This document shows, piece by piece, positions 8,229 to 38,527 of a stretch of DNA of 64,000 bases. The stretch comes from an uncultured Clostridia bacterium (lineage in GTDB: Bacteria; Bacillota; Clostridia; TANB77; CAG-508): contig CAKPRA010000001.1 in the NCBI GenBank assembly GCA_934180065.1, positions 12,669 through 76,668 of the forward strand. The letters are read 5' to 3'. A program made the position numbers and the translations under genes. Numbering within the stretch: the first letter of the stretch is position 1; the number at the start of each line of letters is the position of its first letter. The notes below the pieces were generated by a model, which saw only the letters and a list, made by a program, of their open reading frames with translations, had not been told where the DNA came from and made no database searches.

Positions 8229-8236
8229 CTTGTTAG

Positions 8237-8276
8237 AAAAAAGAGATAAGTTTAATAAAAACTTATCTCTTTTTTT
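8237..8276. terminator. Bidirectional terminator
   Basis: Stem agagataagt / acttatctct is flanked by an A-run and a T-run, between convergent genes. Confidence 0.6.
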
Positions 8277-8281
8277 ATTTA

Positions 8282-9388
8282 TTATCTATTTTCACGTGAT
8301 TTTGATTCTTTGTTCTGAATTTTCTTACCTTTTTCATTAATAGTATCTGTCATATCAACTATTTTTTTCTTCATATCTAATATCTTTTTATTTTTGGCAT
8401 CTCTAACTGTCATAACAGCATTTTTTATTCCACCTTTTATATTACTTCCAAACTCGATAATTTTATTTTTTCCATTTCTTGTAATACTTGCAGCCTTTTG
8501 AAAAGAATCTTTTTGCATCTCTTGTACTTTGCTTACAAAATTATTAACAGTATTTTTTACTGCTTCCAATTTTCCCTTTAATAAATTTCCGTTTTTACGT
8601 TGTTTTTCATGATTTTTTCCTTTAAATAATGATGATATTTTTCCAATTAAAGTCTTTATTTTGCTTGTTTTTTCTATATTTGTTAATGATTTGTTTTTAT
8701 CTAAAGCTAATTCTTCCTTTACTAATTTGAATTCACGCTTAGCTCCTTTTTCATTCTTTCTATTATTCTTTACAAATGTTCGTGCTTCTCGTATGCTCTT
8801 TTTTAGTTCATTAATATTATCCCTAGTTTCAGTATATTGTTGTCCAATATGAGATTTTGCGAAATCTTCTTTAAGTCTTTTCAATTCATTATTGCATTTT
8901 TCAACAGTTTCTGTATCTCCTCTTTTTACCGCATCATTTAATAATCGTTTTTGTGAACTTTCTGCTTTTTTATATAATTTATAAATCTCAGTTGCTTCAA
9001 GATTCTTCTTTTCAGATAATTTTTTGGCCAAGTCACATCTATCATCATTTATTGTTTGTTCTGCTCCTTGTCTTAAATCATTATATTTCTTCATACTTTT
9101 TTTATATTCGTTTGTTGCTACATCTACATATAATTTATACTCAGTTTTAATATCATCTCTATTAGCTTTTTTATCTACATATTCTGTTGAAGCATTATCT
9201 ATATAGCTAGATGCTTTCTCCTTAAGATCTACTGCTGTTTCTTTGGCAGTTTTTGCTACATCACATGCCTTAACAATTCCAAGATTAGCTATTGCCATTG
9301 CTAAATTTTCTAATTGCTTTGTTAATGGCTCTACATACTTTTGCTGATTTATATTTTGATCTTCATTATTTATATTTTTATCTTCCAT
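8282..9388 (-). CDS. K/E-rich coiled-coil protein, unknown function (module 3, large)
   Basis: 368-aa ORF with an AAGGAGG SD, highly charged and of helical character. No motif recognised. Confidence 0.7.
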   Translation of the reverse strand: MEDKNINNEDQNINQQKYVEPLTKQLENLAMAIANLGIVKACDVAKTAKETAVDLKEKASSYIDNASTEYVDKKANRDDIKTEYKLYVDVATNEYKKSMKKYNDLRQGAEQTINDDRCDLAKKLSEKKNLEATEIYKLYKKAESSQKRLLNDAVKRGDTETVEKCNNELKRLKEDFAKSHIGQQYTETRDNINELKKSIREARTFVKNNRKNEKGAKREFKLVKEELALDKNKSLTNIEKTSKIKTLIGKISSLFKGKNHEKQRKNGNLLKGKLEAVKNTVNNFVSKVQEMQKDSFQKAASITRNGKNKIIEFGSNIKGGIKNAVMTVRDAKNKKILDMKKKIVDMTDTINEKGKKIQNKESKSRENR

Positions 9389-9420
9389 GGAAACCTCCTT
9401 ATTAATTTTTTAATAATTAC

Positions 9421-9588
9421 TTACTCATCCACATGTAATATTTTATCAATATTATTACTTAAATTCTCACAATACTCTTCCATTTCTTCTATTAAAGCTT
9501 CTCGTTCTTCTGCGTTTAAACTGTCTAAATCAATTATTCTTCCATTATGCACAATTTTCCCAAACTTTTCTTCTGTTTCTTCATTCAT
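9421..9588 (-). CDS. Small acidic helical protein, 55 aa (module 3, small)
   Basis: Hand translation: MNEETEEKFGKIVHNGRIIDLDSLNAEEREALIEEMEEYCENLSNNIDKILHVDE. An AAGGAGGA SD lies 8 nt upstream of the ATG. It is below the ORF-track cutoff. Confidence 0.55.
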   Translation of the reverse strand: MNEETEEKFGKIVHNGRIIDLDSLNAEEREALIEEMEEYCENLSNNIDKILHVDE

Positions 9589-9760
9589 AAAATTTTCCTC
9601 CTTCGCTTTTTATCATACCATTCATATCAATTGTTTGTAAATACTTAATTTTAATTTATAAAATACACTCTACTATTCTTTTAAAAATAATACAATAGAG
9701 CATTTATTACAAATACATATAATAATTATAATAAAGCTCTAATTTTTACATTTTTATTAT

Positions 9761-12700
9761 TTATCTATCATTTCTTCCATATTGATTATATGTATCATAT
9801 TTTTTATCATCAACATACATATCATATATATCATCATCTGCAATTTTTGTTCTTCCATCTCCATATTTTTTCTCATGATAATTTTTTGTTAATTTATGAT
9901 TTCTTTTAAATGTTGGGAATAGTCCTTGTTGTACTATTTGAGCAACTGCACTTGCTATTCCAATAATTACTGTACCATTTCCTAATTTATATGCCTTTGA
10001 ACCTTTTGGTATTGCCATACCTTCTATACCAGTTATACTATCACCTTTTACACGAGCTTGTAATGGGCCTGCAACTTTAGTTTCATACCACTCAAATCCA
10101 TCTGGAATCTTTCTTTCTTTTTTTACAATTTTTGAAACTATCTTTGTTGCTCCTTCAGGAATATTCATGTCAGACCATCCTCTTCCCATAGAATGACCAC
10201 TACCTTTTGCCATTTGTACTGTTTCGTTAAAGAATGAAAGTTTATCATCACTTGCATTTAACGCTTCTACATATTTTTGTTTTATAGAGTCTGGTAATAA
10301 CTTATGTAAATCTGAAATTTTTGTAGAATCACTTATATTTAATACACCATATGCATTAGAAAATTCTGAACAATTTGGATGTGTATCAATATACTGTTTA
10401 ATTGCCTCATCTCCTATCGAATATGAAATATTATTTCCTGAAACATCTGTAAATCTAAAATTAATACCTTGTGTAACTGTATCACTTGATGTAAATGTTC
10501 CAGGTGCATGCGCTGTATGTGCTCCTAAATCTGCTGACCAATATGCAGTATCACCTCTCACGCAATCTCCAACTGTAGCATTCTCATATGTTATTGGTAT
10601 TTCTGTAGTTTCTTCAACATCTATAGTTTGAGTTTTATATTTTGGTCTTTGTTCCCATATCGTTGATTTTTGATTTGTTTGTATATCTCCTGGGTTTACA
10701 TTCTGACTTGGATCTTCAACAATTTTTGGTCTACTTAAGAAGTATTTTAATCCTAAAAGAGTAGCCGATGCTGCTATTTTTAATCCTCTATCAATATTCT
10801 TTGTTTTTCCTCTTAATATATTTTTTCTGCTTACTGAATTTGTCCATACTGTATCACCTATTGTTCCACTGAAATCTAATTCATTTACTAAATCTAAGTT
10901 CATATTTCCTACTGAATCACCAGGATTACGTTGCACAAATTTTCCATCTCTTTTACGTCCGCCTTTGACAAATGATTCACTTTGATCTGTAATGGGTACT
11001 GCTGTTTTTCCTCCAAATGTTAATATAGATCTTTGCATAGCTTTTTTTGCAACATCATCTTTATTTAAAGTTGCATAATTATCATATATATCTTCATAAA
11101 TTTCTGAAGATTTTGACATATTTTTATATGATGCTTTTCTAGCTTTCTGATTTCTTTTTGCATTTTCCTTATCTTGAAGTAATTTTACTTTAGCATGTCT
11201 TATCCATTTATCTTCTACAGATTCATCTATTACTTTACATCTATCTTGTATCAATTTTTCGGTTAATTTAACTTTATTTCCATTTCCATCTGGAACCTTA
11301 AAATTAAACCAGCTCTTAAACCATGCTCCAAAAGCAGTTGAACCATTATTCATATAATATTCTTGTCTTGCTTCCTTTCGTGCACTCGCACCTACTTTAT
11401 ATGGTGTTGGCATATCATATGTTCCTGAAATTTTTGATCCAAGATATCTAACTCCTGCAGCTCCCAAACCTATAACTGTTTCTAAAGTTCTTACTGGTAA
11501 TGACGCTAGACCTGCCACATTTGAGATTGCTGTTCTTATTACATGTCTTTTTCCATCAGCTTTTTCTTTAAAACTAGTCCATTTAAATATTGCAGCAGCT
11601 CTATCTTTTGCAGTCACTTTTCCACCGTTATTTCTTACCATCATCGCAGAGCCACCAGTTTTTAATATAGCAACTGTATCTCTTGAATCAAAATGTGAGC
11701 TATTGTAATTTTTAACATAGTCAACTTCTCTTAGAAATCTTTGTTTGATTAGACCTTTTAACTGGTTTATCTCTTCGCTTTTGGCATCTATCTCATCTTT
11801 TGGTTTACCAGCATTTTGTAAATCCTGTAATTCCTGACTTAACTTATCTAATCTGTTTTTATATTCATCAGAATAACCTTCTTCTATACCTACTACCTGG
11901 CATAAACTTATTTTTTTAGATTTTTCTTCCCATGATTCCAATTGCATAAATCTTAAGTCATCTTCTTTTTCTGGATAGTCTTCTATATACTCATAATTAT
12001 AGTCTACCTCTGTTCCATCAGATTTTGTAAATTTTTCTGTTTTATTTTTTCTATGTTCTTGAAATCTTTTCCATCTTTCTTTATACTCTTTTGCTTTTTC
12101 TTTATCTCCATATGTCTTAGCTCTACAATCATCATGTCTAAATTTCTTTTCATCATCAATTTTTTGTTTTGTATCACTATCAAACTCATTTATATATGCT
12201 TCTCTATCATCTGCATCTCTATCTAAAATACCATTTTCAATGTCAATTATTTTTACATGATCTGCAAATATTTCCATTTTTTGATCTTCGATATCAATTT
12301 TATTTTTTATTTGTTCTGATTTTTCTTCTACTGCCTTTATTGCATCATCTATTTTCTTTATACTATCTTCAATTTTTGCTTTTTCTGCTCCTGTTTTAGA
12401 TGGGTATGCTTTTGGATCTAAAATAATTAATAATTTCATATCAGGCATTAATCTTATAACTTCTTCATCTTTAATATTTATAGTATTTCCATCTTTATCA
12501 GTATATGAAAAAACTCCATTTTGTGCATTTTCAAATTGCTTTCTAATCTCTTCATATTGTGTTGCTAAAGAAATTAGTTGTTTATTTTTTAATGCTTCTG
12601 TTTTATTTTTTGAATCTCCACTTGTAATATTAGCATCTTCGGTCAAATCTGCCAAAGTAGTAGTATCCAATCCTTTATCATGCAATTCTTGGATTTTATC

Positions 12701-13384
12701 TTTCATTCCTTGTTTCATAGTATCTATCTGCGTTGCGTAATTTGTTTTTGCTGCATCATACATTGAAGTAGCATGTGCAGGATCTGTAATCCATGATTTA
12801 AGTCTATTTATTTCATCTATTGTATCTGTAAGCTTTTGTAGCTGTTCATTATATAATTTGCTCTCTGCTATTATTTCTCTTCTATCTTTTTCTGGACTAG
12901 TAGTTTTATCAAAGAAAATTTTATGTTCTATATAATTATACTTATCTTGTAGCTTTTGTAATTCCTCTTTTTCTAATTGACTACTTGCAATACCTTCTTG
13001 TAGTGCTTGCTTATATTCATTTTGATCTGGATCTTTCAATACTAAGTCTTGTCTTATTTCAGCAGTTTTAAATATTGATTCTGTTGCTAATTCTAATGCT
13101 TGCTTTAGTGCATCATAGTCTGTAGTATTTCCTGCTGCAGGTGAAGCATGAGATGTTTCTCTATCATCTATTTTTTTTGTTAATTCTTTATATAATTTAT
13201 GGAAATTATTATCATTTTCATTATCTTGATCTAATTCAATGTCTGCATTTGCTGATAATTCATTCATTATGTCATCTATTGCTTGTTTTGCTTCATCATA
13301 TTTTCCATCTGTCAATAATTTTTCAAAGTCACTTACAATATTCTGCATTTCTTGATTTATTCTATCAAAAGAAATATCCACCAA
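9761..13384 (-). CDS. Large 1207-aa protein, unknown function (module 2, large)
   Basis: Long ORF with a TTG/GTG start after an AAGGGGGG SD. About 550 aa of N-terminal charged coiled-coil is followed by a mixed region with amphipathic G/A-rich stretches. No signal peptide. Confidence 0.75.
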   Translation of the reverse strand: MVDISFDRINQEMQNIVSDFEKLLTDGKYDEAKQAIDDIMNELSANADIELDQDNENDNNFHKLYKELTKKIDDRETSHASPAAGNTTDYDALKQALELATESIFKTAEIRQDLVLKDPDQNEYKQALQEGIASSQLEKEELQKLQDKYNYIEHKIFFDKTTSPEKDRREIIAESKLYNEQLQKLTDTIDEINRLKSWITDPAHATSMYDAAKTNYATQIDTMKQGMKDKIQELHDKGLDTTTLADLTEDANITSGDSKNKTEALKNKQLISLATQYEEIRKQFENAQNGVFSYTDKDGNTINIKDEEVIRLMPDMKLLIILDPKAYPSKTGAEKAKIEDSIKKIDDAIKAVEEKSEQIKNKIDIEDQKMEIFADHVKIIDIENGILDRDADDREAYINEFDSDTKQKIDDEKKFRHDDCRAKTYGDKEKAKEYKERWKRFQEHRKNKTEKFTKSDGTEVDYNYEYIEDYPEKEDDLRFMQLESWEEKSKKISLCQVVGIEEGYSDEYKNRLDKLSQELQDLQNAGKPKDEIDAKSEEINQLKGLIKQRFLREVDYVKNYNSSHFDSRDTVAILKTGGSAMMVRNNGGKVTAKDRAAAIFKWTSFKEKADGKRHVIRTAISNVAGLASLPVRTLETVIGLGAAGVRYLGSKISGTYDMPTPYKVGASARKEARQEYYMNNGSTAFGAWFKSWFNFKVPDGNGNKVKLTEKLIQDRCKVIDESVEDKWIRHAKVKLLQDKENAKRNQKARKASYKNMSKSSEIYEDIYDNYATLNKDDVAKKAMQRSILTFGGKTAVPITDQSESFVKGGRKRDGKFVQRNPGDSVGNMNLDLVNELDFSGTIGDTVWTNSVSRKNILRGKTKNIDRGLKIAASATLLGLKYFLSRPKIVEDPSQNVNPGDIQTNQKSTIWEQRPKYKTQTIDVEETTEIPITYENATVGDCVRGDTAYWSADLGAHTAHAPGTFTSSDTVTQGINFRFTDVSGNNISYSIGDEAIKQYIDTHPNCSEFSNAYGVLNISDSTKISDLHKLLPDSIKQKYVEALNASDDKLSFFNETVQMAKGSGHSMGRGWSDMNIPEGATKIVSKIVKKERKIPDGFEWYETKVAGPLQARVKGDSITGIEGMAIPKGSKAYKLGNGTVIIGIASAVAQIVQQGLFPTFKRNHKLTKNYHEKKYGDGRTKIADDDIYDMYVDDKKYDTYNQYGRNDR

Positions 13385-13413
13385 TTATTCCCCCCTTTTT
13401 CGCTTCTTCATTA

Positions 13414-13566
13414 TTATATTGATTCCAATAATATCGCCTTTATTCTGTTTATTTGCTCATTATATTCTAATAATTGCTCTGTGGAAGCTTTTTTTAAAGT
13501 TTCTTCTGTCATTAGACTATTAACCTTTTTTAATGCTTCTAACAATTGTTTTACATTTTCATCCAT
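13414..13566 (-). CDS. Small helical protein, 50 aa (module 2, small)
   Basis: Hand translation: MDENVKQLLEALKKVNSLMTEETLKKASTEQLLEYNEQINRIKAILLESI. It has an AAGGAGG SD and appears paralogous to the 55-aa ORF at 15807-15974. Confidence 0.6.
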   Translation of the reverse strand: MDENVKQLLEALKKVNSLMTEETLKKASTEQLLEYNEQINRIKAILLESI

Positions 13567-13585
13567 AAAATTTCCTCCTTTGTAA

Positions 13586-15739
13586 TTATAATTCTAAATC
13601 ATTATCAACATCATTATGTAATATATCATTATGTTGAGTTTGAACTCTTTTTGCATGTTTCTCAACATTATCTTGATAACTATCACCTTTTGCTTTTCTT
13701 ATATTTGTTATTTCATCTTTTCCTACTTTTGCACTTCTATATAATACTTCTTCATAAACTGCAGCTTCTAATTCATCTTGTAAATCAGTCTTATCTACCT
13801 TTTTAGCATCTGTGCCTTGATCTTTTCCTGCATTATATAATTGATGTTGTACTTGTGCACTTTTCTTAATTCTATCAAATAATTTTTCAAATGCATTTCT
13901 TTCTTGATTATTTATGATGACTTCTTCATATTCTTTTAAAGCTTCTTTTTTAATAAATTTATTTTGGCTACTAGTTAGCATTCTATTTCTTATATCATGT
14001 TTTTTCCATAATCTACCAGCAGCAAAGAATCTTGTAAATACATTACCAATTTTTAATCCCTTTAAAATACTTCTCTTCTCTGATCTTTTTAAAGAATCAA
14101 TTTTCGCTAATACTGCAGTTTCATCAAAGCCTTTTTGTAAATAATAATCTCTATCATCATTTGTTAAGCTTTGAATATCCATTACTGGTTTTTGTTCCAT
14201 AACTGGTTTTCCTGCACCATCTAAAACTGGATTTCCTGTTGTAGGATCAACTTTAGGAACCTCTTCTGTACAAATTTCTTGTACATATACAGGTTTTCCT
14301 GTTGTAGGATCAACTTTAGGTTTACCATTTTCCATAACTTGTTCATATTCTACCTTATAGTATGGGTTTCCATCTCTATCAATCTTTGGTGTTCCATCAG
14401 AATTTAATACTGGTTCATATTTAGGCTTTTTTGTTATTTTTCCAGTTCCGTCATCAACATCCACATATACTGGTTTTTTTGTTGAACTATCTATTACTTG
14501 TATAAATTCTGTCATAACTGGATTTCCTTTAGTATCAATTACTGGATTTCCACCAATATCTAATAATTGCCTCTTAATTACTTTTGGCTGAGTTTTTGGT
14601 TTTGCCTTAGTAGAAGAAATTCTATCATAAATTTCTTTATATTGCTCAACATTTTTATTCCTTAAATCAATTAATCTTTCTTCTCTTCTTATTGCTGATG
14701 CTATATCTACATTCATTGACTTTGAAGCATCTTCTAAATATTTATCTACTGATTGTCTTGATGATTTTAGTATTGCTGGATCCGTATTATCTGTATTTAA
14801 TATTGCATCTTCTATTGTTGAATTAATTCCTAATTCTGCCTTTTCTGCATCAGTTAATGTAGTAACTCTTTTAGCTAAATTTTTATATGTACTGTCTATT
14901 TCTGTTTCTACATTTGCTAGTTGAACAGTTATATTTGTTGTAGCCTTTGCTCTATTAGCATCTGTTTCCCAATCATCAAAAATATGTTTATCTACACCTT
15001 TAATGTCTAGCTTTTTTACACTATTAGCTAAATATTTTAAATTATTTTCTGCTCTTTTAATTTGTTCATCTAATTTAGCTTGTTTATTTGGATCTGTTTC
15101 TGATGCACGACTAGTTTTTAGTGAATCTAATTGTGTAAATTGTTTTTTTGCAACTTCCAAACTTGTAATTGCTCTTTTACAATCTCCTATTATTGTTGAA
15201 TAACTTTTTTGAGAGTAACTACCAGTTTTTATTATAGAGTCTTTTCCTAATAATTTTTCGAAAACTTTTTCTCTATCTTTTTGACTTCTTTTTAGCTCTT
15301 CTATATAAGTTCTACTATCTTGATTTGCTTTATCTGCATAATCTTTAAATTTATCTATAGAAAATCCTCTTTTAACTAATTCATTACTTAAATTTTGTTG
15401 ATTAAACATTGAAGTTAAATATTTATTCATTTCTGCAATAAGTTTATCTCTATCTACATTTGTAGTTGTATGAGTATTTATATCATTTTGTACTCTAGTA
15501 AATATTTCTGTAGATATTTTTCCAATATCAGCTACCTCTCCTGTTGATAAAGTTATTGTATTTTTACCATTTGAATCTACATTTACAATTCCTGGTGTTA
15601 CTAAAAAACTATTAATTTGATCCACCGCAAGTTTCACATCTGCATAATTCTCATTTTTTAAAGCATTTTCAATTTCTGTTAATAAACTCCCTAAATTTAC
15701 ATCTGTTAAATCTGATGCATTTAAACTTTTTAAATCCAT
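13586..15739 (-). CDS. Large 717-aa protein with G-x-P-V repeats, unknown function (module 1, large)
   Basis: Long ORF with a charged helical N-half. The central region carries repeats such as KVDPTTGKPVYV and KVDPTTGNPVLD. Confidence 0.75.
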   Translation of the reverse strand: MDLKSLNASDLTDVNLGSLLTEIENALKNENYADVKLAVDQINSFLVTPGIVNVDSNGKNTITLSTGEVADIGKISTEIFTRVQNDINTHTTTNVDRDKLIAEMNKYLTSMFNQQNLSNELVKRGFSIDKFKDYADKANQDSRTYIEELKRSQKDREKVFEKLLGKDSIIKTGSYSQKSYSTIIGDCKRAITSLEVAKKQFTQLDSLKTSRASETDPNKQAKLDEQIKRAENNLKYLANSVKKLDIKGVDKHIFDDWETDANRAKATTNITVQLANVETEIDSTYKNLAKRVTTLTDAEKAELGINSTIEDAILNTDNTDPAILKSSRQSVDKYLEDASKSMNVDIASAIRREERLIDLRNKNVEQYKEIYDRISSTKAKPKTQPKVIKRQLLDIGGNPVIDTKGNPVMTEFIQVIDSSTKKPVYVDVDDGTGKITKKPKYEPVLNSDGTPKIDRDGNPYYKVEYEQVMENGKPKVDPTTGKPVYVQEICTEEVPKVDPTTGNPVLDGAGKPVMEQKPVMDIQSLTNDDRDYYLQKGFDETAVLAKIDSLKRSEKRSILKGLKIGNVFTRFFAAGRLWKKHDIRNRMLTSSQNKFIKKEALKEYEEVIINNQERNAFEKLFDRIKKSAQVQHQLYNAGKDQGTDAKKVDKTDLQDELEAAVYEEVLYRSAKVGKDEITNIRKAKGDSYQDNVEKHAKRVQTQHNDILHNDVDNDLEL
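14229..14320. repeat. Intragenic direct repeat (29 nt, 63-nt period)
   Basis: ggatttcctgttgtaggatcaactttagg (14229-14257) against ggttttcctgttgtaggatcaactttagg (14292-14320), 28/29 identical. Confidence 0.85.
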
Positions 15740-15806
15740 AATTTATCGCAATTACCTATATAGTAATCGCATCCTCCTTCTTTTCATATTTTATTCTACA
15801 ATTTTT

Positions 15807-15974
15807 TTATCTTTCTTTATAATTATTTTTGTAAGTAGCTAACATCAATGCTTTTAGTTTATCTACTTCAACTAAATATTTCGCTAATTGTTTTGGTGAT
15901 GCGCCCTCAATAGATTCTTTATCTATTTTGGCTTGTAGTTCTTTTATTTTTTTAGTTATATCACTACTTTCCAT
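15807..15974 (-). CDS. Small helical protein, 55 aa (module 1, small)
   Basis: Hand translation: MESSDITKKIKELQAKIDKESIEGASPKQLAKYLVEVDKLKALMLATYKNNYKER. An AAAGGTGG SD lies upstream. Confidence 0.6.
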   Translation of the reverse strand: MESSDITKKIKELQAKIDKESIEGASPKQLAKYLVEVDKLKALMLATYKNNYKER

Positions 15975-16015: not shown

Positions 16016-16044
16016 ATTTTATCATTAATCTTTTTTATTTGCAA
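16016..16044 (-). promoter_or_regulatory. Putative sigma-A promoter of the six-gene operon
   Basis: On the minus strand: TTGCAA, 17-nt spacer, TAAAAT, about 40 nt upstream of the first small ORF. Confidence 0.4.
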
Positions 16045-16180: not shown

Positions 16181-17287
16181 TTGAAAAAAGATGTTTTCAG
16201 TGATTATTATGATTTCCTTGACGATGATTTTCAAAAATTATCAAAGAAAAAAAACAAGGCTACTTCTTCTACAATCAAAGTATCAACTATAAAAAAAGCT
16301 TTATCAAATGTAAAGAAACGTACAAAATCTTCAGTTCCCTCAAAAAATCAATATGAATATTATGATATAGATTTATTTGATTTTTCTTCTACTACATCAA
16401 AAATTGCAAATGTTCAAAAAAAAACAAAGCCCACAAAACAAAAAAAACCCAGAAAATCTTCTAAATTTATAAAATTCCCACAAACACAAAAGTCACAAAA
16501 ATCTTCGACAATGCAAAGTGCTTCAATTAGAAAAAATATAATAGATTATGATGATTTTGATTTTATAATAAATACATCAAGGAGTGTTACAAATAGTGTT
16601 TCTCAAAATACAAATATAAATTCAAGTAAATATACAAATTCCCAATTACACGGTGGTAGAAAATTTCATATAGTAATTGATCAGAGTTCAGGAAATTACA
16701 CCTTACTTGATAGTTATCTTAGCATAGTAGATTCTATGGATTCAAATCCATTATTTAGTTTTTTTACTCAAAAATATAAATTACATAAATTTAAAAGACA
16801 ACTAAAAAGGGATTTTAAATCATACATAAAATCTTGTCATAAAAATAAACAAGTACCTGATTCTAAATTTAAAGATATGTATAAAAAAACTAAGTACTAC
16901 TTGGCAATTTGCCCTGATGCAGATTATCAAATATTAGAACTTTTACGAAATAATGTTACAAAAATAAATCCTAATTACGCTAACTACCAAACAGCCTGTA
17001 CAGAATATTTATATGAACTTGCTAAATATGAAGATGGTAACCCAGATAATATGCCTTTTGATATAAACTTTTGTTGTGATAAAATAAACAATAAACATTC
17101 TTATATATCTTATCAATTTAATCCATCACCTAATCCTGTACAAACATTTAAAACATTATATAAGCAAAAAAATAATGTGCAATCAGAATGTCAATCAAAT
17201 ATTAGATATGATGCAATAGTTCCAAATACCAAATTTTCTGATGTCCGTAAAGTTCGTACACCTATTACACATGATGATAGAAGTTAA
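16181..17287 (+). CDS. Hypothetical K/S/N-rich protein
   Basis: 368-aa ORF with a TTG start after an AGGAGG SD. The N-half is low-complexity and basic, the C-half contains Cys. No motif recognised. Confidence 0.6.
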   Translation: MKKDVFSDYYDFLDDDFQKLSKKKNKATSSTIKVSTIKKALSNVKKRTKSSVPSKNQYEYYDIDLFDFSSTTSKIANVQKKTKPTKQKKPRKSSKFIKFPQTQKSQKSSTMQSASIRKNIIDYDDFDFIINTSRSVTNSVSQNTNINSSKYTNSQLHGGRKFHIVIDQSSGNYTLLDSYLSIVDSMDSNPLFSFFTQKYKLHKFKRQLKRDFKSYIKSCHKNKQVPDSKFKDMYKKTKYYLAICPDADYQILELLRNNVTKINPNYANYQTACTEYLYELAKYEDGNPDNMPFDINFCCDKINNKHSYISYQFNPSPNPVQTFKTLYKQKNNVQSECQSNIRYDAIVPNTKFSDVRKVRTPITHDDRS

Positions 17288-30280: not shown

Positions 30281-30394
30281 GTAACAACAAATTCGTTCTT
30301 TTATCAACAAATTCTACCAAAACACTTGAATTTTTGCCCAATTTATAGGATAATATATAGGAATTATTTTATTTTTTTGAAAGTGGTGAAAATC

Positions 30395-32734
30395 TTGAAA
30401 TTATTTGATAAATTTTTAAAATTTCTAAAAACTGATAGAAACACATTTTTAACTTATATATTAACTCTAATAACAATTTATCTAGCTGTTGATAGAGTTG
30501 TAGAAATGTTATTAATGATTTTCACAGGAATTGGTTGTTCATATTGGAGTCCTATCGGATATGCTTTTGCTTTTGCTTGTCCAATTTTTGCATTTCTGTT
30601 TTCATGCAGTTCTAAATTTGCAGATTCAGAGGAAACCAAACTATCATTTTTCTATTTATATGTAATAGCTTTATATATTTTGGTTATATCAATGGCAAAT
30701 CAATCCATAAATTCAGGTTGTTGGTTACTACTTTTATCATCACCATCATATGTAAAAATTGCAACAGAATATTCAGATTTAATAGCACCAGCATTTAGAA
30801 GTATTTCTATTTATTTGCCTTTAGTAACTTTCTATCCTCTTATTGTAAAATTAATAACAGTAGTTAATGATACAAAAAGCATAAAAGAATCCATATATGA
30901 ATATCCTGGAATTAACCTATCTAATAAAAAATCACCTATGACAGGTCAATATAGTTGTGAAATAAAACTTTGTGTAGATAAACATACTGGTAATGATGTA
31001 AAAATTGCAGAAGATAGACGTTTTGAATCAATGCTTGTTGTTGGTGTATCAGGATCAGGAAAAACTTCTTTAATTTTTGAACCAATGATAGCAAGGGATA
31101 TTGAAAAGAAGCATTTTTATAATAAATCTGCTAAAGAATTCGGATTTGCAGCTTTAAAATCTGGAATTGCAAATTTAAATGCACCTTATAACAATGAATA
31201 TTTAAATAAAAACTTTTCATTGAATATGCTTTCTCCAAGCTCCACTGAATCTGGAACATACAAATCTTGTATGAAAAAAATGATTTATGGAACATATAAT
31301 GGAAAAATTATATACAAGGATTTAGGATTAACTTATATATCTCCTGATTTTGAATCAATATCAAGAGTTATAAATGTAGCTAAAAATTATAATGTAAAAT
31401 ATAATTTAATTGATCCTAATTCACCTGATTCTATTGGATTAAATCCTTTTGCATATGATAATCCTTTACAAACATCTGTAGTAATATCAACAGCATTAAA
31501 GAATTTGCATTTTTCAAGTAATGCTGATATGGATTTAAACTTAGGAGTTCAAGCAAACTTTGCAACACAGGCTATTGAAAATGTTTCAATTTTATTTAAA
31601 GTAATGTACCCAAGAATGCATGATGGAGAAATTCCAACATTAGAAGATATATTAAATGCATTTAATGATTTTTCTATAATTCAAAATATGACTGAAGAGC
31701 TTATGAAAGATGATGAATTAGCAGAAAAATTCAAAATATTAACATCTTATTTTAAAAAGAATTTTTACACTGATAGTATTTATCGTGCAGATACAGAAAA
31801 GTATATTTCTTCAGCAATAACACAATTAGATAATTTATTAAGATATCCTGGAATTAGAAATATTTTATGTAATAGAACTAATAATATAAATTTTGATTCA
31901 GCATTAGCAAATGGAGAATTTACATTTTTATGTACAAGACGTGGTGACTTAGGCGAAGCAGCACATACGGCTTTTGGTTTATTCTTCTTATTGTCTATGC
32001 AATATGCTGTATTAAGAAGACCTGGTATTGAAGCAACAAGAATTCCTCATTTCTTATATATTGACGAATTTTCAAACTTTATATCAAGTTCAACAGAGCC
32101 AATATTTACTTTATATAGAAAATATAGAGTAGGTTCAGTTATTTCTATACAAAATCTTGATCAGTTAAATGCAAACAATAAAAAGTATAGAAAAACTATT
32201 ATAGCAAACTGTGTTCATAAAGTAGTATTTGGAAATAATGAGCCTGAGGATAATGATTGGTGGTCTAAAGAGCTTGGTGAAAAATCTGAATTTACATATA
32301 ACCAAAATTATGAAACTGCTAAAGAAAAATATTCAGATACACTTAGTGGTATCAAAGCTGCGAAAACTCCAAATTACAAACCTGGAAAAGTTCAATCTAT
32401 TAAATTTAAACAATGTATATATAAAATTCGCGATGGTGGTGGAAAAAATATTGTTGGTACAGGAAATTTAAATTTCTTAGATTCAAAATATAAGGAAAAA
32501 CAAAAAGATACACAATTTAATTTTGAAAAATTTACTAATGGAACATCTTATAGTGAAGATAACTCAAAGAGAAAGAAATCAAAAAAGTCTGGTATTCCTA
32601 CATTTGTAAATGATGATAATTCCGATAATGAATTAGATCCAATACGTTCAAATGGAAAAGAATCAATTTTTGGAAATCCAGAAGAAGGTCAAGCAATAAT
32701 TAATAATCCTAATAATATAAAAAAGAATACTTAA
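30395..32734 (+). CDS. Type IV coupling protein-like ATPase (TraG/TraD/VirD4 family), membrane-anchored
   Basis: N-terminal TM segments, Walker A GVSGSGKTS and Walker B FLYIDEF. The start is uncertain: TTG at 30395 after an AAGTGGTG SD, or the track's 30326. Confidence 0.55.
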   Translation: MKLFDKFLKFLKTDRNTFLTYILTLITIYLAVDRVVEMLLMIFTGIGCSYWSPIGYAFAFACPIFAFLFSCSSKFADSEETKLSFFYLYVIALYILVISMANQSINSGCWLLLLSSPSYVKIATEYSDLIAPAFRSISIYLPLVTFYPLIVKLITVVNDTKSIKESIYEYPGINLSNKKSPMTGQYSCEIKLCVDKHTGNDVKIAEDRRFESMLVVGVSGSGKTSLIFEPMIARDIEKKHFYNKSAKEFGFAALKSGIANLNAPYNNEYLNKNFSLNMLSPSSTESGTYKSCMKKMIYGTYNGKIIYKDLGLTYISPDFESISRVINVAKNYNVKYNLIDPNSPDSIGLNPFAYDNPLQTSVVISTALKNLHFSSNADMDLNLGVQANFATQAIENVSILFKVMYPRMHDGEIPTLEDILNAFNDFSIIQNMTEELMKDDELAEKFKILTSYFKKNFYTDSIYRADTEKYISSAITQLDNLLRYPGIRNILCNRTNNINFDSALANGEFTFLCTRRGDLGEAAHTAFGLFFLLSMQYAVLRRPGIEATRIPHFLYIDEFSNFISSSTEPIFTLYRKYRVGSVISIQNLDQLNANNKKYRKTIIANCVHKVVFGNNEPEDNDWWSKELGEKSEFTYNQNYETAKEKYSDTLSGIKAAKTPNYKPGKVQSIKFKQCIYKIRDGGGKNIVGTGNLNFLDSKYKEKQKDTQFNFEKFTNGTSYSEDNSKRKKSKKSGIPTFVNDDNSDNELDPIRSNGKESIFGNPEEGQAIINNPNNIKKNT

Positions 32735-32839: not shown

Positions 32840-33778
32840 CTAATCTAATAATTTAATTTTTGTGTTTTTCAATTTATATTTACCTGTTTCTTCATTCTTT
32901 ACAAATTCAACTAAAGATTCATCTAAGCTTTCATCATTTTGTTTTAAATCAGTAGTATAATATAATTTTATTTTATCTATTTGTACATCTTTTAAAACAA
33001 TAGTTTTAAATACCTCTGCTACATGTTTATCATCTTCGCAAACTATAATCAATTGAGGCATACTTTTAAATCCAGAATCTCCAGGTACAAAATTATCATA
33101 AAAATCTTTATAGAATCTCATTTTATCAACAAGTTTCTTTTGCCAATCATCTTCTCTCCTAATAACCTCAAAAACAAAATCTAAAGATTTATCTTTTTTA
33201 GTAAGTTTAATACTTCCACCTGTTGCCTTGAATGTTTTTCCTAATGTTTTTGCTGTAATAGAAGGCTTTGGGGTATAACTATCAAAAGCTTTAACCTTTC
33301 TTAAATATGCTATAATGATTTGATTTCCAGCTAATCTCTTTTTAATCATTGCCACTGGTTTAGTATTATCTGTTGGTTGCCATTTACATTCTTCTCCTCT
33401 AGAATTTAATAAATATTTTCCCATCTTCTCCAAGCAATATATTCTATATATTCCTTTTCCATCATCAGAATTAAAATAATATCTAGTTAATATCTTAGTT
33501 TTAACAAGTTGATCTAATTTCCCATTTAACTTATCTTGTGTTTTAGGATCAAATCCATTAATTTCTAATAGTTGAAACAATTGTCTTGATGTGATAAATT
33601 CAAATTCATTTACTAATGATAATATTTTAAAATGTAAATCATTAATATGACCTAAATTAATTCTTTGAACTATTTGGTTCATTGAAACATATCCATCTTT
33701 TCCATCAAAAACTTTTATTTCACCCTCTCTAATTGCAAAAGGTGATGTTAATGCCTTAATCTCATTATCTTCTACCAA
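32840..33778 (-). CDS. Replication-relaxation (Replic_Relax, PF13814-like) family protein
   Basis: The N-terminal wHTH-like segment HFKILSLVNEFEFITSRQLFQLL matches the family pattern. TTG start after a GGGAGG SD, 18 nt downstream of the S1-domain gene. Confidence 0.5.
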   Translation of the reverse strand: MVEDNEIKALTSPFAIREGEIKVFDGKDGYVSMNQIVQRINLGHINDLHFKILSLVNEFEFITSRQLFQLLEINGFDPKTQDKLNGKLDQLVKTKILTRYYFNSDDGKGIYRIYCLEKMGKYLLNSRGEECKWQPTDNTKPVAMIKKRLAGNQIIIAYLRKVKAFDSYTPKPSITAKTLGKTFKATGGSIKLTKKDKSLDFVFEVIRREDDWQKKLVDKMRFYKDFYDNFVPGDSGFKSMPQLIIVCEDDKHVAEVFKTIVLKDVQIDKIKLYYTTDLKQNDESLDESLVEFVKNEETGKYKLKNTKIKLLD

Positions 33779-36348: not shown

Positions 36349-36816
36349 TTATACATCTAATTTCTCATTTTTCAAACATGATATTCCTATAACTATAACA
36401 CCTATTACCACAAAAATATCTGCTATATTAAAAACGGGAAAATTAATAAAATCTCCGAAATCAATAAAATCAACAACATATAATCTTATTAATCTATCTA
36501 TCAAATTTCCAACACCACCAGAAATAAGCATTCCTATCCCTACTGACAAAAAAGTATTTATTTTTTTAAAATTTATACATACACATATTAGAATTGCAAC
36601 AATTATAACTAATGTAATTATTGAAAATAATTGTACATATCCACTTGCTAATCCAAAGGCAATCCCTCTATTTTCGCAATATGTGATATTTAAGAAATTT
36701 TTAATTATGGTCTTTGGTAAATTATCCTTATCAAATACTACTAAAAACTTCGAAATTTGATCAATACATATTAATATTATAATTAATATAAAAAATTTTC
36801 TTTTATTCATTGGCAT
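36349..36816 (-). CDS. lspA: Lipoprotein signal peptidase II
   Basis: 155 aa, 4 TM, NRGIAFG and FNIADIF motifs. Confidence 0.85.
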   Translation of the reverse strand: MPMNKRKFFILIIILICIDQISKFLVVFDKDNLPKTIIKNFLNITYCENRGIAFGLASGYVQLFSIITLVIIVAILICVCINFKKINTFLSVGIGMLISGGVGNLIDRLIRLYVVDFIDFGDFINFPVFNIADIFVVIGVIVIGISCLKNEKLDV

Positions 36817-38527
36817 TTACTCTTTCATATATTGTAAAATGTGAATCACTATATATTTCAACATAATTATCATCTCTTACTAATAAAGAATTCAATTTTG
36901 AATTAGAATATGTTATAGCGTGTGTAATATTATATTCTTCAAATTTATCTTCATAGTTTCGTGACAAATTAGATATTCCTATAAAATCTGAGAAAATATC
37001 ATTTCCAACATAATCTCCTTCTTCATCTTTTTCCCCATTAAATTCAGGTGAATATAAGTCAGCTCTTGAGTCTATAAATACAGGTATTCCTGAAAATAAC
37101 AGATAACTTCCATAATTATATTCATTATATAGTCTTAAATTTTCTTTTCCTACCTCTGGAATTAATGTTCTATTTATATATTCTGCGGCAGCTACTGGAT
37201 ATGAACTTTCATCTATAAATACATCATTTTTCTTATCCAAATAATTACAAACAGATAATGTTCCAAAAATTGTAACACATATTACTATTAGTATTGCATT
37301 TATTAATTGCTTTTCTTGTTTATTATCATTATCTTTAAATAATTTTTTTATATTATCTATTGTATCACATACTAATCTTGCTAATATAAAGTTTCCAATC
37401 AAAACTAACATTGAAACTTGTCTTTGTGACATAAAACTTAATGCTATTAATCCCATTAACATAAAGAAATCTCTTATCTTTATTTTACATTTTGAAAATA
37501 TAAGAATTCCAAAAACCATTACTAAAATAATTACCATGTTTATATTTTCTGCTAATGTAAGAGGTAAATGTTCACTTATGCTTTGTGTTGTATTACCAGC
37601 GGTTGTTTTTACTAAATACGTATAAACTGTATCTTTTATTGGTGTTAATAGTCCTGTGAACAAGCATAAAATCATAATTAATATTAACCATTTTATATTT
37701 TTTTCTTTTACAATTTCAAGTTTATTTGTTTTAGCTATATTTTTTTGTACTTTTTCATTATGTTTCTCTTCTAATTTTTTTATTTTATTTTTTTCAATAT
37801 TTAATTGCAATTTACTAATTTTATTCTTTTTGATTTTCGTTTTATAAAATAATTGAAACTTTTTTATAATTTTTCCATAATTTGCAGTTGTCAAAATTAC
37901 ACATAAATATTCTGCAATATATGGTAAATATAATATAAAGTAGAATGGCCATACAGCACAATGAAGATTTGCAATTAATATTGGTATAACAATCAGTAAT
38001 ATGGCATATCTCAATTTTTTAGTTTTTAAAAATTCTTCTATTCCAAATATTGTTAACACAAACAAAATAAATGTCACTAGTTGAGCTCTTGCTGCTATAA
38101 AGTTTTTTAATCCATATATTGAAAGTGCTGATATTAAAAATGATACTATATCATTTTTGGTCCATCTTAAATTTATAAAGTATATTAAAAGTGCCAAAAT
38201 GACGGCTAAAATACATGTTGCCCAATATACTCCTTGGAAATTTCCAATATTATATATTTTATATGTAAAAAAATCATATAACCAATGTGGATATGTATAT
38301 GGTAAATTATGGAAAGAATAATGATCTTTCATATCCAAACCTTTATTCCATGGTAACAAATCTGAGACATGCTCTGTATTTTCGCTTATAAACTCTCCAA
38401 TTTTTATTGTATAAAATGTATCATTCTGAAAAGTTTTTGGAGTTAAAGAATATGCATATGCTACAATTGCAATTATGCATAAGGCTCTTAATATTATTTT
38501 TAAAAATTTATTTAATTTCTGATTCAT
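36803..38527 (-). CDS. Large polytopic membrane protein, unknown function (GT-C-like topology?)
   Basis: 574 aa with more than 10 TM segments, a K-rich cytosolic insert and a C-terminal soluble domain. Overlaps lspA by 14 nt. Confidence 0.5.
   Translation of the reverse strand: MNQKLNKFLKIILRALCIIAIVAYAYSLTPKTFQNDTFYTIKIGEFISENTEHVSDLLPWNKGLDMKDHYSFHNLPYTYPHWLYDFFTYKIYNIGNFQGVYWATCILAVILALLIYFINLRWTKNDIVSFLISALSIYGLKNFIAARAQLVTFILFVLTIFGIEEFLKTKKLRYAILLIVIPILIANLHCAVWPFYFILYLPYIAEYLCVILTTANYGKIIKKFQLFYKTKIKKNKISKLQLNIEKNKIKKLEEKHNEKVQKNIAKTNKLEIVKEKNIKWLILIMILCLFTGLLTPIKDTVYTYLVKTTAGNTTQSISEHLPLTLAENINMVIILVMVFGILIFSKCKIKIRDFFMLMGLIALSFMSQRQVSMLVLIGNFILARLVCDTIDNIKKLFKDNDNKQEKQLINAILIVICVTIFGTLSVCNYLDKKNDVFIDESSYPVAAAEYINRTLIPEVGKENLRLYNEYNYGSYLLFSGIPVFIDSRADLYSPEFNGEKDEEGDYVGNDIFSDFIGISNLSRNYEDKFEEYNITHAITYSNSKLNSLLVRDDNYVEIYSDSHFTIYERVNANE

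Follow-up and report, generated by a model that had tools for sequence, protein, structure and literature searches.

What does a block of six adjacent genes without a recognisable domain encode, and do the six genes form one system? The block occupies positions 8282-15974 of a 64,000-nucleotide (nt) stretch from an uncultured Clostridia bacterium (contig CAKPRA010000001.1), and the whole of that stretch is called the window here. It consists of three small genes (s1, s2 and s3), each directly followed by a large one (L1, L2 and L3, respectively). Homology indicates that two of the three pairs, s1-L1 and s2-L2, are copies of one unit, in which the gene for a predicted two-helix protein of ~50 residues directly precedes that for a giant, mostly helical protein. 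Taking partner binding, membrane association and the scaffold role together, we infer with a probability of roughly 35% that the large proteins form a membrane-associated rod scaffold, whose N-terminal domain would depend on the small protein, its obligate partner or chaperone. Below, we set out the evidence for the unit, weigh this reading against secretion, pore formation, spore coat assembly and a mobile origin, and consider how the genes may be expressed.

The two-gene unit and its chromosomal site

All six open reading frames (ORFs) run on the minus strand, and ORF listing reproduced every coordinate and length given in a preliminary description of the locus, i.e., s1 at 15807-15974 (55 amino acids, aa), L1 at 13586-15739 (717 aa), s2 at 13414-13566 (50 aa), L2 at 9761-13384 (1206 or 1207 aa), s3 at 9421-9588 (55 aa) and L3 at 8282-9388 (368 aa). 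For L2, homologues' N-termini and gene calls in other assemblies favor a start at GTG 13381 (MDISFDRIN..., 1206 aa), which is probably the correct one, over TTG 13384. The helical-hairpin proteins s1 and s2 are paralogues and form, with their orthologues, one family with two predicted helices and the motif A[ST]xx[EQ]LxxY, of which the Ala is invariant and the Leu and Tyr are nearly so (in s1, the motif continues with ...[IV][DN]KL). At the same time, L1 and L2 share a homologous N-terminal region of ~340 residues (hhalign probability 98.2%, E = 3.5e-14). Given one family of small proteins and one shared N-terminal domain, s1-L1 and s2-L2 represent a duplicated two-gene unit; judged by this homology, the two pairs carrying the domain in the window arose by duplication. 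The block had been described as three iterations of one arrangement, which applies to these two pairs only: s3 belongs to a separate small family with no detectable relation to s1 or s2 in family comparison, and profile comparison detected no homology of L3 to L1 or L2.

The small ORFs are genuine genes. They were called by independent gene callers in other assemblies, and orthologues are present in every related locus (L0xx hereafter designates related loci in other assemblies and P0xxx designates family proteins). Between the window and its sister species, s1 is 55-63% and s2 65-68% identical, compared with 35-42% for L1 and 40-44% for L2. Compared with L017, a diverged strain, s1, s2 and s3 carry in total 10 synonymous and 2 nonsynonymous differences (3 and 0 for s3 alone), and the ratios of nonsynonymous to synonymous divergence (dN/dS) are 0.07 for s1, 0.05 for s2 and 0 for s3, a range indicative of purifying selection; topB has 0.066. 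Lack of conservation or neutral evolution in relatives had been named beforehand as an argument against these ORFs, and neither was found. The arrangement itself, a small helical partner directly upstream of a large protein with a helical N-terminus, is likewise conserved across relatives, the small gene lying 3-67 nt upstream of the large one in all 14 L2-type loci examined. In the window, the gaps are 67 nt (s1-L1), 29 nt (s2-L2) and 32 nt (s3-L3). Of the small ORFs, to which strong Shine-Dalgarno (SD) sequences had been attributed, s2 and s3 have, like L3, an SD of the GGAGG type and s1 has GGTGG; that of L2 is a G-run. Two leads on s1 were dropped: a resemblance to SinI and Spo0E motifs was not supported by Pfam, and a 464-aa protein clustered with s1, which looked like a natural fusion, is an unrelated ATPase that represents the 90% cluster of s1 through a clustering artefact.

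Close relatives of L2 fall into seven 90%-identity clusters among 5.8 billion proteins, and those of L1 into three. L2 occurs in 4 of 185,579 GTDB species representatives, all of them 'Clostridia bacterium' metagenome-assembled genomes from the ruminant gut; two contigs from JGI metagenomes contain it as well. When 1.84 billion representatives were searched exhaustively with a profile, 66 proteins were recovered at E <= 1e-3 (29 of them at E <= 1e-10), and almost none of the 35 distant members scanned carries a Pfam or NCBIfam domain. The gene order in sister species is topB, a divergent orphan gene, s1-L1-s2-L2, extra genes, and rpsL-rpsG-fusA-tuf. In the distant loci L011 and L013, small-large-small-large lies directly upstream of rpsL, and in the more distant L014-L016 the order is topA, trmFO (L014 and L015), a small gene of 50-53 aa, a large one of 1332-1693 aa, and rpsL; L012 has the pair on a contig that ends before rpsL. 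Every locus that reaches that far, including ~20%-identical relatives, has a small-plus-large pair directly upstream of rpsL. Such a constant gene context marks the unit as ancient, transmitted vertically and confined to a single locus in a clostridial clade of low guanine-plus-cytosine content (GC, 27-32%), and not as an accessory island. The impression that the block looks accessory did not hold, as its site between topB or trmFO and rpsL is fixed even at ~20% identity and it has no phage, plasmid or viral relatives.

The same observations bear on the possibility that the block is a remnant of a mobile element, of a phage (a tape-measure protein with its chaperones) or of a defence system. 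Large helical proteins encoded after small upstream genes superficially resemble a tape-measure and chaperone arrangement, weak tape-measure matches were returned from BFVD (best E = 0.057, template modelling (TM) score < 0.1), and a TraG/TrwB-like gene lies 14 kb away. However, tblastn against phages and plasmids and searches of viral contigs returned no relatives, the block is surrounded by topB, clp and rps genes with no other phage genes, and no viral fold match was significant (best E = 0.018, TM score < 0.1). PHROGs gave nothing at E < 0.009, and no PADLOC model was matched at E <= 0.01, whether by the six proteins, by the divergent neighbour or by three proteins of relatives introduced below (X, Y and the L3-like protein). 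Considering also that the block keeps its chromosomal position in deeply diverged relatives and that GC is 25-33% throughout, the block not being distinct from its flanks, we regard a mobile or defence origin as highly improbable.

The earlier statement that no domain is recognisable in any of the six proteins stood up to domain libraries, profiles, PDB sequences and structure comparison. Searches of Pfam, NCBIfam, PHROGs and PADLOC with the six proteins and with their neighbours gave only sub-threshold noise (for L1-L3, no Pfam match even at E <= 1), and neither single-sequence nor family-profile searches matched a PDB sequence. Using Foldseek, the L2 model had no PDB match at E < 0.07 and its best BFVD match had the values given above, while the L1 model had no PDB match at E < 0.01; the top matches, all non-significant, were helical bundles of a generic kind (syntaxin, ClyA, tape-measure proteins and 14-3-3). 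Motif scans of the six proteins found no WxG, LxG, YxxxD/E, LPxTG, HExxH or Walker A. An SMC- or Rad50-like identity finds no match in the six proteins, distant relatives giving weak coiled-coil noise (E >= 1e-5). For Sec-exported or S-layer proteins, we found no hydrophobic N-terminal window and no SLH or CWB match; N-termini are hydrophilic, without a signal peptide as already described, and there is no clear transmembrane segment. The position upstream of rpsL also suggested that L1 and L2 might be divergent RpoB and RpoC, but no RNA polymerase domain was matched.

Architecture of L2 and its candidate roles

The AlphaFold2 model of L2, computed from a 20-sequence alignment, has a mean predicted local distance difference test (pLDDT) score of 76, reaching ~90 for aa 1-500. 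It starts with an N-terminal helical hairpin (aa 12-24 and 28-44) that bears a TPR-like G-x-Y-x-E-A motif, followed by long antiparallel helices up to ~aa 560 that form a helical rod. Then come a constrained core, in which two Gly/Ala-rich helices (aa ~612-652) are hydrophobic, more long helices, a beta-rich C-terminal domain (aa ~907-1102) with strands of more than 20 residues, and a charged tail. The predicted fold is one of antiparallel helical bundles and not a single long coiled coil. By comparison, the AlphaFold model of L1 is of low confidence (three sequences, pLDDT 60). The heptad-like stretches once attributed to the large proteins exist in parts of L1 (3.5-residue periodicity), whereas L3 aa 246-350 follows a 3.67-residue hendecad periodicity instead.

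Proteins of the L2 type range from 1142 to 1693 aa, over which the N-terminus, mid region, core and C-tail remain homologous. Among 39 superfamily members, the C-terminal 300-400 residues make up one BLAST cluster and the length from the N-domain to the mid region differs by hundreds of residues. A variable middle combined with a single C-terminal cluster suggests that the rod differs in length between members while its ends are kept, with no polymorphism of the C-termini. A second branch of the superfamily (P0062-P0090 and P0095) retains the mid, core and C-terminal parts, lacks the N-terminal domain and carries other heads, such as the transglutaminase-like Cys-His-Asp domain at the N-terminus of P0095 (L021, 6529-9189). 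We noticed that an s-like gene is present in every locus encoding a large protein with the N-terminal domain and is absent upstream in both loci examined of members without it (P0067 and P0095). Therefore, the small gene tracks the N-terminal domain, which points indirectly to binding of that domain by the small protein. Separately, a link to surface lipoproteins was considered through the Mycoplasma 'MAG6410 transglutaminase-related lipoprotein' model, matched by two distant relatives, and was set aside: the match covers the transglutaminase core only (46 bits against a cutoff of 450), and neither relative has a signal peptide.

The tempo of evolution differs strongly between the block and its surroundings. 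In the genes flanking the block, the window and its sister species, in which L3 is undetectable by BLAST, are 85-97% identical; between-strain dN/dS is 0.48 for L1, 0.48 for L2 and 0.31 for L3. Within L2, the ratio of nonsynonymous to synonymous polymorphism (pN/pS) is 0.06 at aa 601-700, the most constrained stretch of the protein, 0.23 at aa 1-100 and 0.24 at aa 801-900. The hydrophobic helical hairpin of the core is the only hydrophobic segment conserved family-wide (mean Kyte-Doolittle (KD) hydropathy of the members 1.1-2.3). A two-transmembrane topology that would place the beta domain of L2 outside the cell was considered and rejected: homologues do not retain the hydrophobic character of the flanking helices (aa ~860-882 and 1136-1154), ruling out a simple transmembrane topology.

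If the large proteins are membrane-associated rod scaffolds, the unit could work as follows. The small protein would be made together with its large neighbour and would bind the conserved N-terminal helical domain, probably as a helical bundle, thereby acting as an obligate partner or chaperone, either to maintain the rod in soluble form or to control how it assembles. L2 would be a rod of variable length on the cytoplasmic face of the membrane, attached through its Gly/Ala-rich hydrophobic hairpin (aa ~613-650) and equipped with the beta-rich C-terminal domain. In the lineage of the window, the unit would have been duplicated, L1 being a paralogue that became shorter, retained the N-terminal domain and acquired a Pro/Gly repeat spacer, and an unrelated second pair, the acidic s3 and the basic hendecad-repeat protein L3, would have been added. 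Expression would be vegetative, from a sigma-A promoter, and the synthesis of L1 may be tuned by a split ribosome-binding site bridged by a hairpin.

Several observations weigh against this reading. The hairpin of the window's own L2 has a KD value of 1.29, below the typical transmembrane threshold, and AlphaFold confidence is low at aa 579-629, so that the hairpin could instead lie buried in the core of the protein. The proteins match no known scaffold family, and an identity of 35-44% for L1 and L2 where topB has 85-88% is fast for housekeeping scaffolds. Furthermore, pN/pS between close strains is, from small counts, ~1-1.5 over the C-terminal beta domain of L2 (~1.5 at aa 901-1000), with ~1 in the C-tail, and L1 contains a length-polymorphic Pro/Gly repeat. 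Fast evolution, a near-neutral C-terminal domain and the L1 repeat are more typical of surface-exposed or secreted proteins. The gene neighbourhoods of relatives also include enzyme-like elements: protein X with a weak C-terminal HD-domain match (E = 7e-4, below the Pfam cutoff), a 561-aa protein with HELEH (HExxH-type) between the L2-like gene and rpsL of L011 (13456-15141), and a transglutaminase-like domain among neighbours or fusions.

The fast evolution, the near-neutral C-terminal domain and the L1 repeat fit better with the possibility that the large proteins are substrates of a non-Sec secretion route than with a scaffold. The small hairpin and the N-terminal domain would then form a bundle recognised by an exporter elsewhere (type VII secretion system (T7SS)-like, flagellar-type or other), and the large proteins would be extracellular fibrous adhesins or effectors. 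In the Lap/LXG systems of T7SSb, small helix-turn-helix proteins bind the conserved helical N-terminal domain of a large protein, which has two partners, Lap1 with Lap2 or Lap3 with Lap4, and Lap1 carries an FxxxD export motif (PMC10801868). The module parallels this architecture, with small helical genes directly upstream of a large gene and no signal peptide in either system. Another parallel is offered by mycobacterial PE-PPE, where a small helical-hairpin gene immediately precedes that of a larger protein whose conserved N-terminal domain is helical; these pairs are multi-copy, ESX-dependent and lineage-restricted. The module resembles PE-PPE in gene order, in long, fast-evolving and repeat-containing C-terminal parts and in lineage restriction. 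Consistent with secretion are also the conservation of the small partner and the N-terminus next to a fast-evolving remainder, the co-occurrence of the small gene with the N-terminal domain, the pN/pS of ~1-1.5 in the beta-rich domain between strains and the variable length of the L1 repeat.

On the other hand, none of the T7SS and LXG marks looked for was found. None of the six proteins contains a WXG, LXG or YxxxD/E motif, as already described; no L.G occurs in the first 60 residues of L1-L3, s3 has no FxxxD, and s1 and s2 contain no Phe at all. Neither LXG nor WXG100 nor the Lap families DUF3130, DUF3958, DUF5344 and DUF5082 appear among the Pfam matches, those of 15 family members in the case of the Lap families. 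There is a single partner of ~50 aa for each large protein instead of two, whereas Lap proteins have roughly 100-130 aa. Unlike WXG100 proteins (~100-aa hairpins with a central WxG), s1-s3 have 50-55 aa and no Trp. C-terminal domains are homologous and not swapped as in LXG toxins, and no immunity-like gene follows L1 or L2, the latter being followed by a 172-nt spacer and s3. No EssC- or FtsK-type ATPase, EsxA-type WXG100 gene or other secretion gene was found among the window ORFs scanned or the annotated neighbours of the related loci examined, in agreement with the absence of an adjacent EssC-type ATPase noted at the outset. Moreover, the locus is single-copy, fixed in the core genome and vertically inherited, not a variable island. 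PE-PPE differs further in belonging to another phylum, with no sequence relationship to the module and with ESX-type genes of which none was seen here. The organisation of a secretion substrate, which the preliminary description had proposed by analogy with LXG toxins and Lap partners, gained no positive support, and we consider secretion, the main rival of the scaffold reading, somewhat unlikely.

The constrained Gly/Ala-rich hairpin set in long amphipathic helices raises another alternative, namely alpha-helical, membrane-inserting proteins of a pore-forming or translocon-like kind. In this case, the L2 hairpin would insert into a target membrane or the cell's own, in the manner of ClyA-family toxins, colicin pore domains or type III translocators, and the small chaperone, encoded before each large gene, would prevent premature oligomerisation. 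ClyA, AhlB and MakA are among the weak top fold matches of L2. In addition, type III secretion system translocators with their class II chaperones and ClyA-family proteins share with L2 an elongated helical bundle, an internal hydrophobic hairpin that is the most conserved part, and a small adjacent partner gene. Nonetheless, the fold matches are non-significant (E 0.4-2, TM score <= 0.21), and L2 is ~4 times larger than these toxins, the proteins as a whole being three to five times larger than known alpha-helical pore-forming toxins. The host is Gram-positive, no injectisome was seen, and the partner is not a TPR chaperone. Neither an export route nor an immunity gene was seen, and a core-genome locus would be unusual for a toxin. 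Pore formation is therefore improbable in our view.

Expression signals, the s3-L3 pair and neighbouring genes

How might a membrane-associated scaffold of this kind be expressed? A sigma-A-type promoter, already part of the preliminary description, is present on the minus strand at 16016-16044 (TTGCAA, a 17-nt spacer and the extended -10 element TGaTAAAAT) and would serve s1-L1-s2-L2. Promoter-like matches are not enriched in the AT-rich DNA of the window (72 found, 67 expected from shuffles), but a -35 box and an extended -10 element (TGnTAnAAT) recur at the matching place ahead of s1 in L007, L009, L011 and L013, four loci that differ in their divergence. This conserved position supports a predicted vegetative, sigma-A-dependent expression. 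It also bears on a possible role of the large proteins in sporulation, in the coat, the exosporium or otherwise in spore morphogenesis; such proteins would be synthesised by the mother cell and deposited on the forespore. Sporulation genes lie nearby, one for BofC and one for a Polysacc_synt/MurJ-type protein, perhaps SpoVB, and coat proteins are typically lineage-specific, fast-evolving, repeat-containing and without a signal peptide. Contrary to this idea, the promoters of all five loci are of the sigma-A type (TTGACA-like -35 with extended -10), no sigma-E, -K, -F or -G promoter was noticed in these upstream regions, for which no dedicated scan was made, and library scans gave no similarity to known coat families. 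The promoter type disfavours a sporulation role, which we regard as quite improbable.

Whether the block is a single operon, as first described, was also addressed. Within the 172-nt spacer between L2 and s3 (9589-9760), a terminator-like hairpin followed by a U-rich tract lies at 9697-9740 on the minus strand; the segment 9660-9765 (106 nt), comprising this hairpin and another of smaller size, has a folding energy of -21.1 kcal/mol (z = -3.6). A second promoter-like site follows upstream of s3 at 9612-9641 on the same strand (TTTACA, 18 nt and the extended -10 element TGgTATGAT). In relatives, up to three extra genes are inserted exactly at the L2/s3 junction. The terminator-like hairpin, second promoter and insertion point together make two units, s1-L1-s2-L2 and s3-L3, likelier than one, and the predicted signals suggest that the block probably consists of two transcription units. 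It is closed by a bidirectional intrinsic terminator at 8236-8276 (minus strand -18.3 kcal/mol, z = -5.7). No RNA family was found in the block by Rfam.

The start region of L1 has an unusual layout. Its SD sequence, AAGGAGG, lies on the minus strand at 15773-15779, 33 nt upstream of the AUG, with none beside the AUG, and a 9-bp hairpin occupies the interval (15748-15770, minus strand; -10 kcal/mol, z = -3.8). The order of SD, hairpin and AUG recurs in nine loci, i.e., the window, L007-L010, L017, L019 and the distant L011 and L013, in which stem sequences differ and pairing is kept. We predict from this layout that the region is a split ribosome-binding site. In phage T4 genes 38 and 25, the SD lies 22 and 27 nt from the AUG and an intervening hairpin restores the functional distance (PMC3014915). 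L1 shares with these genes a too-distant SD and a hairpin between SD and AUG, but differs in being a cellular, Gram-positive site, located between the cistrons of a small gene and its large partner.

Beyond the shared N-terminal domain, L1 contains the variable-length Pro/Gly repeat region with D..GNP motifs (aa ~390-525), and a C-terminal helical region with a conserved hydrophobic/basic segment, IGNVFTRFFAAGRLWKK, and the acidic end NDLEL. Acidic-hydrophobic C-terminal ends recur in the family: NDLEL in L1 (~13586-13600), and DDDFTL or DDDFVL in the L2 homologues P0003-P0006. From their sequence, these ends could represent a shared docking motif, although the window's own L2 does not have one.

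The s3-L3 pair has properties of its own. s3 is very acidic (net charge -12) and forms a family with the motif KLGKxVxxGxIxDLD, whereas L3 is very basic (net +28), Lys-rich and helical. L3 aligns to the C-terminal part of proteins of 486+ to 616 aa that follow s3-like genes in relatives, and its hydrophobic periodicity of 3.67 residues (11/3) at aa 246-350 is strong. The L3-like protein of L008 (18354-20204) contains, at aa 421-600, about ten tandem Ala/Gly-rich repeats of 11 residues (GAVAAKDAVVR...). Hendecad repeats such as those of L3 and this protein are reminiscent of amphipathic helices that bind lipid surfaces, or of right-handed coiled coils.

In sister species, the insertion between L2 and the s3-like gene spans 13838-17972 in L007, 13890-18032 in L008, 13931-17797 in L009, 5798-9699 in L002 and 7454-9433 in L019. 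It encodes a protein X of ~1175 aa (split into 373 + 770 aa in L002) followed by a protein Y of 90-140 aa, and in L007 and L008 an additional ORF of ~60 aa; the species of the window has none of these genes. On the other side of the block, a divergent orphan gene on the plus strand (16181-17287, 368 aa) has a conserved position in sister species, a Lys/Ser-rich N-terminal half, an identity of 46-48% over its C-terminal ~200 aa and a dN/dS of 0.42, and may be associated with the block.

Two further genes of the window were noted among housekeeping genes. An 802-aa ORF at 30326-32734 (plus strand) carries TraG-D_C/TrwB coupling-protein domains and adjoins a Replic_Relax gene (32840-33778, minus strand); this is the gene 14 kb away mentioned above, and it may be left over from a conjugative element or act as a coupling-type ATPase on its own. 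A 574-aa ORF at 36803-38527 (minus strand) has no Pfam match.

Place among known systems and meaning for the clade

Among known scaffolds, Streptomyces Scy and FilP, and EzrA, are large, helical, fast-diverging, lineage-restricted, chromosomal and vertically inherited, and Scy and FilP are adjacent paralogues based on hendecads. The block resembles Scy/FilP in its adjacent paralogues and, through L3, in its hendecad periodicity. Unlike any of these proteins, to which there is no sequence or fold match, the module has a dedicated ~50-aa partner and, in L2, a beta-rich domain and a hydrophobic hairpin. By elimination, the module falls outside all that has been described, whether one considers protein family, fold or gene module, a placement that rests on undetected relationship and not on a demonstrated new mechanism. 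The novelty is thus one of protein families and gene organisation rather than of function; the organisms are uncultured, and there is no established link to a long-standing question.

A bolder interpretation, which we think possible but doubtful, is that an order-level clade of uncultured gut Clostridia possesses an undescribed apparatus. In it, the ~50-residue adaptor would load or cap a membrane-anchored rod of tunable length, whose beta-rich tip would be shown to a fast-changing partner (a host, a phage or a neighbouring cell), possibly via a new route that is neither Sec nor T7SS. The region of ~700 residues formed by the mid, core and C-terminal parts would be a new engine for membrane interaction or assembly, used also under other heads as in P0095.

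In either case, an uncultured clade of low-GC Clostridia from animal guts keeps ~8 kb of coding sequence at a prime chromosomal site, behind a predicted vegetative promoter. The locus offers several delimited objects, i.e., a putative N-terminal docking domain, a constrained hydrophobic hairpin, natural variation in rod length and a conserved, predicted split ribosome-binding site. Should the small proteins turn out to be adaptors dedicated to giant rod proteins, they would define a new class of partner-dependent proteins in Bacillota, beside WXG/LXG-Lap and PE-PPE, and would provide a handle on the cell biology and host interaction of organisms that are known only from metagenomes.

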